A model generated the notes under the pieces. The model was given only the letters and a program-made list of their open reading frames with translations. It did no database searches and had not been told where the DNA came from. A stretch of 63,994 nucleotides of DNA, the filler included, from Stramenopiles sp. TOSAG23-6 (lineage: Eukaryota): assembly GCA_900128565.1 (NCBI GenBank). It is 9 parts of 9 records of this genome, joined end to end, with 100 filler letters (N's around TTAATTAATTAA, not from the genome) between each part and the next. Parts side by side here need not be neighbours in the genome. Positions count along the whole stretch, not along the records: positions 1 to 7,149 come from LT636601.1; positions 7,250 to 14,395 come from LT636602.1; positions 14,496 to 21,635 come from LT636603.1; positions 21,736 to 28,872 come from LT636604.1; positions 28,973 to 36,104 come from LT636605.1; positions 36,205 to 43,328 come from LT636606.1; positions 43,429 to 50,542 come from LT636607.1; 2 more parts are not named here. One strand, 5' to 3'. Shown here piece by piece: positions 1-49,100 of the stretch. Within the stretch, counting starts at the first letter, position 1; each line of letters begins with the position of its first letter. The translations under genes and the position numbers were made by a program.

Positions 1-1238
1 ATTCTGCAAGCGTAACTTTTAATTTTTCTTCGTTCGTTTTAAGCTCTTTAGTAAGACGTGCAATTTCTGCAATGTTTTCATCATGATGTTCCTGTGATAA
101 GAACACGCCGCTCTGATTACGCTGTGTAATTAATTGTAACTTAAGTCTCTCATTTTGTCGCTCAAGGTCTCGAAGAAGCCCACGTTGGGTCATGTACTGT
201 GAAAAATATTTCTTTAAAAATCGGTAAGTATGAAATTTCAAATTTGGTCCAAAACAAAATAAATTTAAAATTCATGATGAAAACGTACATTCTCTGGTTC
301 TTTGTTGGATCATTTTTAATTGTTTTGGCCATACACATATATCGTAGGGTTGATTTGCTCTCACCTATGCCAGACTTTGCAGGGCTAATTGTTCCAATAA
401 TAATGGTTTTTGCACTACCTCCAAGCGCAGGTTGTAAAAGTTGAGTTAATTGACTATCACGGTATGGAATATGAGAATGATTCTGTGCTAACGCTTGTAT
501 CACTCTTTTTAGAGCTTCGTTACTTTTATTAATGTTCTTTGCTTCTGTTGCACGCATGCCTTCTGCGCCAGATTTGCCGATGCACTCAGACCCAGCAAGA
601 TCTACAAGAAATAATTTTCCATTTTTAATCTCATCTTCACCCGATGTAGTCGTGACTTTCATACGCACTGTTAATATAAAAATAAAATGTGAACGCGACG
701 ATTGCTTATTCATTTTTGTTGCAGATACTTTTCGTGTATTTTGAGCATTTTGCATCAAATCATAGATTTCCGAAGGTTTCTTCACTGCGACTTCCTCAGC
801 GTTGATAAGCTCCGTGTCTTGAACCTTGATGGCTCGTTTCGGCATTGAAGGAGCATCATCTCGGCCGTTTCTATCACTTTTCTCATTGCTATTTACGGGA
901 TCTATACAATCAAAAAAACGCTCGTTATATAACTCAATTGCTGTTACTTTGACGTCAAAACCACATTTCTTCGTTTCTAACTTTTCAAAGATACTCGTAC
1001 ACATACGCGGGATAATACCCGCGTGTGGACTTCCTTTCTCGAGGCTACCCTGCATTGTATGTGTTTTTCCTGTACCAGTTTGACCATATGCAAATATTAC
1101 ACAATTATATCCTTCCAGTACATCATCTTCTATACCTTGTGCAGCCTTTTCGTACATATCAGATTGCGAAGTTGACGGAGGGAACACTTTATCGGCTTGG
1201 AATTCAGTGAAATTACGTCCGCTACTTCCAACCTTTAC
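1..1238 (-). CDS. Kinesin-5 (BimC/Eg5-like) motor domain and neck; 5'-truncated and inverted relative to its own stalk; intron 192-288
   Basis: FAYGQTGTGKTHTM P-loop, SSRSH, LVDLAGSECIGKSGA and HIPYRDSQLTQLLQ motifs. Removing 192-288 (GT..AT) gives NQRMTQRGLLRDLERQNERLK...QSGVFLS, which fits the kinesin-5 neck. Confidence 0.9.
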
Positions 1239-46103: not shown

Positions 46104-49100
46104 CTATTCGCCTTTCAATCTTTTAATTTCTTTCCAAATTAGAGCCGCGCGTTTATGCATTTGGTTTGTTTTTTCATCAAGTCTGCGAATTTCCGCCTTT
46201 CCCCGGTTCACTTTATCCTTCAAATTCTCCAGAGCTTCGTTTTTCTTAAACGCTAGGTCCCCAGAAGTGCTATCTTTTCTGTGTTCCTCGTACATAATAG
46301 ATTGCTTAACTTGCGTCAACTCAGCTTTGAAAGCAGTTTTTTTAAGACTCTCGAGACTTCGTATAGGTGTAAGAGTCGCAATATTATTTTGTCGTGATAT
46401 TGGCCTGGGTTTCTTTGAAAATACTCCACCGCCGAGGTTATAAAATGTTTTCCCTCCAAGAGACATTAAATTTCGAAATGATATCGTCAAATTGATGTTG
46501 CTGTGTTTCAGAGAGGCAAATATTACAGAAGACCCAATAACACCAACGTTAGCAAGTATTATAAATCCGTCAAGGACAAACTTTTGTGCTTCGGTACGTG
46601 ATGGATGTTCTCGCAAATACCAAGCCACGACATACATACTGCATTGTACTGATAATGAAAACATAGATATACAGTTCAATGCTGGAGATATAAAAGGTTC
46701 TCTAAATCCAACGTATCCAAAGAAAAGTAGAGTAATAACAATAGCAACCATGAGCTGCTCTGACGAATTTGGAAGTACATATTGAATGAATACACACACT
46801 ATCAATTTTCGAAACATTTCCATTACTTCAAACATATAAAATCCAGCACGATACTCTCCGTGCAAAAAACGGAAGCGTGATCGAATTTCTCTATATCTCG
46901 ACCACAAACGCTCCATAGATAGTTCTTCGGCTTTCCAAACTAGTGTCTTTAGTACAAAGTACGGAGTTCCTAAAGTGTACAGAAAAACACAAAGAAAACA
47001 CTCCGGTGCAACATTTTTCATTGTTTCCATCGTACATGGAATTGTAGGATTAATACTCAATATCCATTGAACTCCGTCTGGGTGTATTTGACACTGTGTC
47101 AAATCAAATATTGATCGTGTGACAGGAATAAATGATAGCATTAAAACCCAACATGATAGATTGTATGCAATTAAATAACGACGCCGTTCTGTCTTTCTTC
47201 TCTCATTCAATCGTTTAGAACTTTCATCTGCGGCACCATCTTTGACAGAAAACGCTTCCATTAATTGGCGCTTCCGATTCCAAATCGACTCAACAAAGAA
47301 GTCTTTGATATCGATACATTGTATTAGAAAACGTATACATAGTATTATTATAAGTGGCCCAACCACAATGTAAAGTAATAAATCTGTCAGAGGCTTATCC
47401 ATTGCGTTGTTAAGACATCCTGATGCATTTAAGAATGATACGTGAAGATCAATAAAATCAAAAAATATGAGGAATCTCCATATTAAATCAGTCCAAGGAA
47501 TAGTAAATACATGAGTCATTGCATTGAGGCATTGTATGTGACTGATGATTATTTTGGTATGTCCGATGATTTCATCATAACATTCTAGTCTTGCCTCGCG
47601 CTTTGCTATTTTGAGTGTTGTCTTTAGAAGTGCCTTTTCCTCTGGAGACATGCCCACGTACTTTGGGGCAGAATAAATATATTCTAATTTAGATGCTAAA
47701 GAATCATTCTTTTGGGGTACAGTTTCTCTCTCTTCTAATTTACTGCTCTTGCTTTCTTCTGCATCTCTAATACTATCATTTTTATTAATGGTATTTATTA
47801 CACTACCGTCTTTTTCAGTATCCTTGGTTTCATCAACAGCATCATGTATGATGAAAAAATATTTCAAAAAGAAAATCGTTAGGTACAAAATTCCGTACGG
47901 AAAAAAAATCGATTTTTTTGTTTAAAAAAAAAATAAAACATACATCATCTTCTTTATGATCAGAATCGTATTCGTACTCTGACGACGACGAATACTCAGA
48001 CGTTGTATTCACTTCATCTTTTAATACTTCTCCAAATAAAACTCTACAGTTAACCGCATCTTTATGACCCAAACTTGCACACGAAAAGCACCATCGAGCA
48101 ACCTTTTCCGACTCAATTCCCATTTCTGGATGCAATCTGCGACAATCTTGACAAGTCTTTCTGTGCTTCTTCTGTTTCATCTCTGGGCTCATTTTCTTTT
48201 CATCTCCTTTCACCGGGAGACTCCTTCTTCCCCCTCGAGCTTCACGAATGCCACACGAGATGTTCACTTTCTTTAATTCTCTATATTCCTCCCAGCATCG
48301 AATTTCATCTTGTTTTGATGCTTCTTCCCAAGATTGTTTTTCCTGGATAGTGAGATGACGCCACATAGCATTGAGTTCACGAAATAGTTGCTCTTCATCT
48401 TCTATGAGCTCCGGTCGACGCTGTAATATCCCTGGAGCCATTGCTTCTCTAAAAGCTTCTTTATTAGTCATATGACGCTGGCGAATACCACGGCTATCGC
48501 GGTCTTTATATTCAGCACGCATACGCCAAAGAGAATCTTTTTTTGTCTTGATTAACATTTCTTTACTCTCTACATTACTTATAGGAGAAATATGCCCTGA
48601 AACTTTGATATTACTCTCTTCATAAGTGTCCACTGCAACATGTATTTTACTTCTTCTAAAACAACAAAAACATATCTTGGCTAACAACAATAAAATCTTT
48701 CTGCAGGTCTGATACATCCAAACTGTAAAAACATGTATTCGTTTATATGCAGATAAGAATGTACCAAAGATGATCTTATGGAGGAGAGTAAAAATAGAAA
48801 TTTGATAGCAAAATATACAGCAATAAACCTTTGTCAATAAAAACAAAGCAAAGCAGAAACCGATGAATATTCCGAATGAAAGTCCATTACTTGTCCACAA
48901 AGGACCAGGAAGATTATCGGTGCATGACATACACATCTTATGAAATCTTATAAATCCACTTTCACATATTTTACAATATATTGATCCATCTAGATAACCA
49001 ACCGCACAGCTATCACCGGCTGTACCATTTACATTTGTCAAACTTATACATGGCATCTGCTGGCGAACAGTTTGGTCACACAATCTATTTGGAATTTTAC

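Follow-up and report, generated by a model that had tools for sequence, protein, structure and literature searches.

How are genes read that are interrupted again and again by short insertions ending without an AG? The question is raised by a stretch of 63,994 bases from Stramenopiles sp. TOSAG23-6 (GenBank assembly GCA_900128565.1; hereafter the window), in which an examination of the bare DNA (the sequence-only reading) had found genes broken up by one family of intron-like insertions, mostly beginning with GT and ending with AT, and had concluded that splicing in this organism no longer needs an AG at the 3' end. We followed up this claim computationally and report here that the interrupted genes are readable only with the copies removed at exactly the proposed length. 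The window consists of 9 contigs of 6.1-7.1 kb (GC content 28-39%), joined by N44-TTAATTAATTAA-N44 linkers. Contigs 2 (7250-14395) and 8 (50643-57755) are near-duplicates, 99.4% identical across 7.1 kb and 33 nt apart in length; they are either haplotypes or a redundant assembly, and their sets of intron copies are identical. The non-duplicate sequence analysed amounts to 57 kb, and all intron shares given below are limited to it. The source organism appears to be a MAST-3 marine stramenopile, because one exon of the largest gene matches, with 100% identity, a public protein (P0001) that carries the source label eukprot GSMAST32. This gene, which encodes a VPS35-like protein, is likewise indexed in DNA as well as RNA runs from seawater, and seawater DNA runs of another study index 0.59 and 0.31 of the words of the locus; these figures are index shares only, and the small shares of runs X5-X12 were not taken as evidence of habitat.

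Copies and signals of the intron family

Copies were located with a profile hidden Markov model built from 11 of them; boundaries were projected from the profile, and seven weaker copies were placed by coordinates. The profile matches the family throughout contigs 1-8. In total, 39 complete non-duplicate copies with lengths of 87-146 nt were recovered from 16 genes, along with 7 more that are cut by contig ends, which agrees with the 39 insertions and additional truncated ones previously described on seven contigs (contigs 1-7). Each element has the same layout: a GTAYGTTTT donor is followed by the branch-like TACCTAAC, then by a spacer rich in A and T whose length varies, and lastly by a T-run and CACAATAC as terminal motif. 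Across the whole window, GTAYGTTTT occurs 28 times (2.2 expected) and CACAATAC 17 times (2.0 expected), so that the motifs listed by the sequence-only reading as common to the copies are indeed over-represented. Occurrences of GTAYGTTTT at 3948, 16072, 38147 and 40878 were set aside as chance, and the regular-expression hits at 13794 and 19182 were likewise exonic or foreign to the family.

For the analysis of termini, the excised segment of every copy was taken to run from the donor through the second nucleotide after the terminal motif. This gives ends of GT-AT in 27 copies, GT-TT in 3, GT-AG in 2, and GT-TG, GT-GG, GT-AC, GT-GT, GC-AT, AT-TT and GA-AT in 1 each. At the 3' end this corresponds to AT in 29 copies, TT in 4, AG in 2, and AC, GT, GG and TG in 1 each, exactly the tally that had been made by hand. 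An AG stands at the cut in only 2/39 copies, and 37/39 end without it whichever of three possible cut registers (see below) is chosen. The 5' end, in contrast to this 3' end, is that of a canonical intron: GT occupies positions +1/+2 in 36/39 copies and GC in 1/39, A is found at +3 in all 39, G at +5 in 30 and T at +6 in 37, and conservation reaches +9, T being present in 31-37/39 copies at positions +6 to +9. A start of GTATGT or GTACGT is present in 25/39. Inside the copies, CTAA[CT] was found in 34/39 and the longer TACCTAA[CT] in 32/39, and TACCTAAC is a putative branch site of the CTRAY type.

The distance between this motif and the 3' end is not constant. The A of the branch motif lies 28-54 nt from the cut, and the cut invariably falls 2 nt after the terminal motif. 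Because of this fixed offset, and because folding does not equalise the branch distances, the 3' site is seemingly measured from the terminal motif. The idea that a hairpin shortens the branch-to-3' distance was dropped, since the 'effective' distances after folding had a standard deviation of 7.8 versus 6.0 for the raw ones. The element ends form an inverted repeat of 4-6 nt (GTAY...RTAC), and RNAalifold applied to 31 copies returned 0 conserved pairs and no consensus structure.

Length of the excised segments and use of AG

To judge the proposed cut, flanks of 75+75 nt were joined and scored for a frame that stays open through the junction. The frame was open in 36/39 copies on the strand of the element and in 11/39 on the opposite strand. 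Of the three misses, two border a 14-nt micro-exon and pass when the whole gene is spliced; the third is the end of its gene, with a stop within 40 nt downstream. The claims that all copies lie in gene-sense orientation and that a cut 2 nt past the motif restores the frame were therefore upheld, with the remaining three copies accounted for. The length matters as well: for the first 32 copies, in-phase cuts were open in 29/32 and the two out-of-phase cuts in 9-12/32. Excision turns 16 genes into single long open reading frames (ORFs), among them products of 1357 residues from a gene with 6 introns, 1069 residues with 9 and 514 residues with 5, the longest ORF having 1438 residues. After excision, no introns outside the family were seen in the genes of the window. 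ORF breaks at 27534-27709, 2124-2224 and 63489-63576 were considered as extra introns and rejected, as they look like gene ends or a T-run frameshift. At 2124-2224 (+), in a coiled-coil gene, two long overlapping frames switch phase near a T-run, probably through a homopolymer error in the assembly and not an intron.

We then asked whether an AG nearby could serve instead. From -45 to +30, an in-frame AG is absent in 17/32 copies and any AG at all in 7/32. The nearby AGs that the sequence-only reading had called out of frame in the copies at 192-288 and 22894-22988 are so, as is the CACAG at 22379-22470; in this last copy a separate in-frame AG at +12 would remove 4 residues that homologues keep. 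Likewise, the in-frame TAG at +3 of the copy at 32574-32690 would remove residues kept by homologues.

Homologous proteins provide an independent measure of the length removed, and of the 21 junctions compared with them 19 are gap-free. The most informative gene is the VPS35-like gene (31388-35497, + strand), whose nine introns lie at 32355..32444 (GT..AT, exon ending GG), 32574..32690 (GT..AT), 32959..33065 (GT..AT), 33325..33428 (GT..AT), 33443..33536 (GT..AT), 33648..33760 (GT..AC, exon also ending AC), 34268..34369 (GT..AT, exon ending GT), 34507..34593 (GT..AT) and 34922..35010 (GT..GT, exon also ending GT), with the micro-exon at 33429..33442 between introns 4 and 5. All nine junctions (9/9) are gap-free against the closest homologue, P0002 (74% identity), and also against 20 further homologues wherever the region is alignable. 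The public model of the same gene, P0001, shows a deletion or a translated intron at 9/9 junctions against 21 homologues, and was evidently built on canonical splice sites. The alignment of the VPS35L protein, one of the checks proposed with the original claim, thus separates the two models at every junction. In the Aa_trans (amino-acid transporter) gene, 5/5 junctions are gap-free against 2 homologues, including those with GA and GC donors and two with TT ends. In a gene for a PA-domain membrane protein, which has six junctions, 4 of the 5 compared are gap-free and an invariant G falls exactly at one of them; the homologues, found in a representative library with a 430-residue exon, are distant (best E-value 5.6e-12) and inform on the length of the junctions, not on their register. 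In the hydrolase gene, 1/2 junctions is gap-free (4 homologues).

Contigs from RNA libraries were compared with contig 5 only, where stretches without cover are uninformative. Record 21 of X8, a poly(A) metatranscriptome, runs along 33246-33324, continues with 12 letters and resumes at 33535-33640, a net loss of 198 nt. This equals the loss of introns 4 and 5 of the VPS35-like gene with the 14-nt micro-exon retained, the last two letters of the micro-exon (AT) also matching 33535-33536. Intron 4, removed in this contig, has no AG at all from -45 to +30. Record 20 of X8 begins at 33064 after 21 unplaced letters, as expected if intron 3 is spliced, the letters themselves being unseen. Most records in the four RNA libraries pile up on the family copies and run into unrelated flanks, which is at most a hint of a mobile repeat; the depth is not readable as copy number, and most joints listed for RNA contigs are repeat noise between copies. 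RNA support for splicing is real but thin. Altogether, these results support the conclusion that whatever removes the introns does not use a 3' AG, as the sequence-only reading had inferred: 37/39 copies end without one, the genes can be read only with that length removed, and 19/21 junctions are gap-free.

Borders, origin and competing explanations

Immediately ahead of the GT, the exon has T in 34/39 copies and, one base earlier, A in 27/39. The same preference is seen at the end of the intron, where the last base is T in 34/39 and the second-last A in 32/39, and the downstream exon starts with G in 20/39. The exon-side dinucleotide before the GT is AT in 26/39. In 24/39 copies the last two bases of the exon equal the last two of the intron (permutation p 0.019), and three of these equal-flank copies are not AT (TT/TT, AC/AC and GT/GT; p 0.009). 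Such borders resemble a 2-nt target-site duplication, or an insertion after (C)AT/G, the slash marking the boundary. The exon-side AT repeat had been overlooked by the sequence-only reading. Its GT-AT ends are consequently not the only fit for the 24 copies with equal flanks, in which a cut one or two bases further upstream (TG..CA or AT..AC) would serve as well; the removal lacks an AG in any register. We favour the GT..AT register because it is the most uniform (GT-AT in 27/39, compared with TG-CA in 19/39 for a one-base shift and AT-AC in 15/39), because GTAYGT is a classical donor and because two informative junctions fit it. At the 32355 junction this register gives G, as in P0002, and the shifted registers give C; at the 21413 junction it gives S, where 4/4 homologues have A or S, and the shifts give L or M. 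Read in this way, CAT/GT...CAT/G would mirror the usual CAG/GT...CAG/G with T replacing G.

We consider it likely that the family consists of spliceosomal-type introns derived from one mobile non-coding element, or 'introner', whose 3' cut is set by the terminal motif. A mobile family is suggested because the alignment of copies reveals subfamilies with linked 5' and 3' variants, because copies in unrelated genes are up to 93% alike (median best-partner identity 80%), and because contigs break inside copies: 7/16 contig ends lie within the family, which hints at a high-copy repeat that breaks assemblies. In introners, the target-site duplication contributes part of the splice site, and splicing thereby gives back the coding sequence. 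Here, an element would land in a gene on the sense strand, carrying its own donor, branch-like motif, T-run and terminal motif. Insertion would duplicate a 2-nt target, or occur after (C)AT/G, and the intron would in this way usually end in the same two bases as the exon upstream of it. With cuts just ahead of the GT and exactly two bases after the terminal motif, the transcript would lose the element and one copy of the repeat, restoring the original coding sequence. The 3' site would be picked by its position after the terminal motif, neither by an AG nor by its distance from the branch motif. An origin of the family by transposition and excision by a spliceosome, perhaps a major-type one whose second step is relaxed, would both fit these features. 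The donor, branch-like and terminal motifs, which had been interpreted as splicing signals, keep that role in this proposal, although the similarity of the copies extends well beyond them.

Several observations weigh against the introner proposal or parts of it. The check on RNA junctions gave a divided answer: one contig joins exons at the predicted length across two introns, but this sole spliced contig has a depth of 2.7, comes from a library that may hold DNA and has 12 middle letters that are unseen, and the non-poly(A) library X6 has unspliced contigs (records 4 and 5). The copy at 21227-21344 has its junction in a stretch of 11 residues that is inserted in comparison with homologues. 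Among the 15 pairs of unequal flanks, both bases differ in 7, a poor fit to a simple 2-nt duplication. The GT..AT, TG..CA and AT..AC registers give the same mRNA in 24/39 copies, the two register-informative junctions each rest on a single residue, and other junctions do not discriminate (V/I at 34268, H/Q at 22719, C/G at 12979 and V/D at 11150). Neither an empty site nor presence/absence polymorphism nor intergenic copies nor an autonomous partner was seen in the 57 kb of non-duplicate sequence. A search of JGI metagenome contigs with an 18-nt core found 7 chance partial loci and zero full elements, which does not imply absence elsewhere.

The most serious competitor, to which we give a minor but real chance, is removal of the introns by a minor-type (U12-like) spliceosome, with the branch point in the T-run/CACAAT motif near the cut and a 3' site chosen by distance, as is the case for U12-type introns, so that AG is dispensable. 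A constant 2-nt offset of the cut from a conserved 3' motif, independent of the dinucleotide, would be explained in this manner, as would a 5' site conserved to +9 (T in 31-37/39 at +6 to +9), and the U12-type introns of Physarum polycephalum look transposon-made and tolerate non-canonical ends (bioRxiv 10.1101/2020.10.12.336362). Yet the U12 5' consensus [AG]TATC[CT]T fits just 1/39 copies, and a U12 branch consensus (with at most 1 mismatch) ending 8-25 nt from the cut was found in 0/39, another conserved motif being present there. The signals that do occur, GTATGT or GTACGT starts in 25/39 copies and CTAA[CT] in 34/39, resemble those of major-type, yeast-like introns. A search of the window against Rfam gave 0 hits. 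Less probable still is that the boundaries lie two bases upstream, making these AT..AC introns and variants like the known AT-AC introns. The exon-side AT (26/39), the AC that precedes the proposed cut in most copies and the identical mRNA in 24/39 would all suit such a shift; however, only 15/39 copies would then have AT-AC ends and there would be 8 different 5' dinucleotides, where the unshifted cut has GT at +1/+2 in 36/39, and the G (not C) at 32355 and the S (not M) at 21413 suit the GT register.

Two further explanations dispense with AG-free splicing altogether, and we find both very hard to believe. One is that the copies are excised from DNA by programmed elimination, in the manner of the internal eliminated sequences of ciliates. 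Short direct flank repeats and inverted ends of 4-6 nt (GTAY...RTAC) are compatible with it, and the joined form was observed only a single time, in a library where DNA may be present. DNA excision would, however, need no sense bias such as the one observed (36/39 versus 11/39); moreover, the copies possess a branch motif and a 5' splice site of the classical kind, the borders are not TA, and the DNA runs containing the locus were found via unspliced sequence (index shares only). The other is that these are ordinary introns spliced at nearby AGs, or are not spliced, with the frame restoration due to coincidence or assembly artefact. An in-frame AG from -45 to +30 does exist in 15/32 copies and the public gene model uses such sites. 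Against this stand the 17/32 copies without an in-frame AG and the 7/32 without any, the gaps or read-through of the AG-based model at 9/9 junctions against 21 homologues, and the homologue-conserved residues that would be dropped by the AGs at +3 (32574) and +12 (22379). An assembly artefact is further disfavoured by the indexing of the locus in another study's seawater DNA (0.59 and 0.31 of its words; index only).

Known systems, implications and further features of the window

Intron sets that mostly lack AG are known from Fritillaria (PMC13326754), Amoebophrya (PMC7789003) and euglenozoans (PMC12501133). The introns of Amoebophrya are alike in being repeated non-coding elements spread across genes, in having short direct repeats that overlap the borders, in being mostly non-GT-AG and in defeating standard gene finders (PMC7789003). 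They differ in that no preferred terminal dinucleotides are described there, in contrast to the GT in 36/39, the AT end in 29/39 and the branch motif found here, and in that their ends pair through inverted repeats of 8-20 nt (PMC7789003). The present copies gave 0 conserved pairs with RNAalifold and have only the 4-6 nt GTAY...RTAC; as no conserved structure is present, the family is therefore unlike the end-pairing Amoebophrya introners. Fritillaria borealis, an animal, has introns with diverse termini at both ends, explained by duplicated U2AF subunits (PMC13326754), whereas a single homogeneous repeated family with a canonical donor is found here.

The nonconventional introns of euglenids are not known to share a conserved donor and depend on base pairing between their ends, unlike the MAST-3 family, in which the donor is canonical and end pairing is not predicted. 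They are similar in being abundant in a protist and in lacking GT-AG borders (PMC12501133). The introners of Micromonas, Aureococcus and other eukaryotes are likewise short non-autonomous elements that make introns on insertion, but there the introns are canonical GT-AG and here the duplicated or terminal pair is AT or another dinucleotide and AG is unused (PMC9860276, PMC12130899). For the U12-type introns of Physarum polycephalum, a transposon-like origin with a 2-nt TA direct repeat and short inverted ends has been proposed, non-canonical 3' ends including GT-AT are tolerated, and a motif lies near the 3' end (bioRxiv 10.1101/2020.10.12.336362). Their 5' site, however, is [AG]TATC[CT]TTT, most end in AG or AC, and the branch motif is placed 9-12 nt before the 3' end (bioRxiv 10.1101/2020.10.12.336362), compared with a U12 5' consensus in 1/39 copies and a branch-like motif 28-54 nt upstream in the MAST-3 family. 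A full-text literature search, which did not extend to supplements, returned no report of the family or of non-canonical MAST-3 introns, and the only paper containing both 'MAST-3F' and 'intron' is silent on splice sites in its main text. The family is unusual for the combination of a uniform AT end with a canonical donor.

Few signals in eukaryotic gene expression are as conserved as the 3' AG, and in the handful of exceptions known the ends are heterogeneous. A near-uniform AT at a fixed offset from a motif, combined with a canonical donor and a clear branch motif, would make such a family a clean natural system in which to study the choice of the second-step site, and could show how a transposon creates introns even without supplying an AG. 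A paper on MAST-3 single-cell assemblies reports that complete protein matches were too scarce for a gene finder to be trained in one lineage, and that the enzyme repertoire there was small; if this is the same organism, both conclusions would need to be re-checked with AG-free intron models. A bolder reading, which we hold to be possible at somewhat less than even chances, is that one burst of this introner gave nearly all the introns of this MAST-3 lineage and that the spliceosome was re-tuned to a 3' site two bases past an intron motif, with U as the last base. In that event, the density in the window (approximately 0.8 per kb) would extrapolate to thousands of copies, CAU/G at the ends of exons and introns would replace the near-universal CAG/G, a uniform non-AG acceptor would be seen for the first time in a eukaryote, and the published gene set of the organism and the ecological conclusions drawn from missing gene families would largely be annotation artefacts.

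The remaining copies are distributed over the window as follows. On contig 1, a GT..AT copy interrupts a kinesin motor gene on the minus strand (192..288), a second (4732..4822, +), close to the end of its gene, contains an N and has a 3' end uncertain by 1 nt, and the 3' part of a third is cut by the contig end (7096..7149, -). The PA/WSC membrane-protein gene of contig 2 (-) contains four GT..AT introns (10105..10203, 10826..10917, 11058..11150, in which the exon ends TA, and 12441..12536), one GT..TT (12638..12726) and one GT..TG (12886..12979), and the contig ends within the 5' part of another copy (14343..14395, +). The same copies recur in duplicate on contig 8 (minus strand: 53465-53563, 54186-54277, 54418-54510, 55801-55896, 55998-56086 and 56246-56339; plus strand, cut: 57703-57755). 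Contig 3 starts within the 5' part of a copy (14496..14585, -) and ends within that of another (21581..21635, +); between them, a WD40 gene (-) has two GT..AT introns, 14778..14885 (5' GTATCT) and 15022..15127, and the methyltransferase/alpha-beta-hydrolase gene (+) has the two GT..AT introns 21227..21344 and 21413..21508, the latter with an exon ending TC.

On contig 4, the amino-acid transporter gene (-) is interrupted by GT..TT introns at 22026..22143 and 22379..22470 (exon also ending TT), a GT..AT at 22620..22719 (exon ending CT), a GC..AT at 22894..22988 and a degenerate GA..AT copy with a telomere-like repeat inside (23105..23244). This contig also carries GT..AT copies at 25999..26090 and 26531..26635 on the plus strand, flanking an AT..TT copy (26278..26390, +, 5' ATACG), and at 28100..28199 (exon ending TT) and 28344..28455 on the minus strand. 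Besides the VPS35-like gene, contig 5 has a copy reduced to its 5' part by the contig start (28973..29063, -) and a GT..GG intron in a Rad9 gene (29216..29321, -). Contig 6 begins with the 3' part of a copy (36205..36279, -), followed by one of the two GT..AG introns (36430..36552, -), which has a telomere-like repeat in its 5' half. The LPMO_10 (lytic polysaccharide mono-oxygenase) gene at 37637-39154 (-) is interrupted by two GT..AT introns (37741..37870 and 37991..38088, the latter with 5' GTAAGT), an armadillo-repeat gene by a divergent GT..AT copy (39631..39776, -) and a FAM177-domain gene by the other GT..AG copy (41695..41788, +). Contig 7 contains GT..AT introns at 45390..45485 (+) and, in the 1438-residue ORF, at 47844..47943 (-), this last being 93% identical to the copy at 14778-14885, and ends within the 3' part of a copy (50489..50542, -). 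The last contig (57856-63994; 6.1 kb), with several ORFs including a PhyH dioxygenase, has zero family copies, in contrast to the other seven non-duplicate contigs.

Some further observations concern the sequence around the introns. The start of contig 7 (43429-43460) is a short tandem repeat of a T-rich 8-mer. The ORF at 19985-21635 (+) joins a Methyltransf_16 lysine-methyltransferase domain and an alpha/beta-hydrolase domain, the best named homologue of the latter being protein phosphatase methylesterase 1-like; it may be a fusion, or two genes without an intervening stop. Interstitial telomere-like repeats, (CCCTAA)2-3 with at most 2 mismatches, occur 15 times in the window versus 2.0 expected, at sites including 21004-21021, 23198-23215, 24299-24310, 26551-26562, 36524-36547, 37572-37583, 39656-39667 and 42001-42012. 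Four of these repeats lie inside family introns, and one, in frame, codes for PNPNPN in the hydrolase gene, at a position at which the homologues are gapped.

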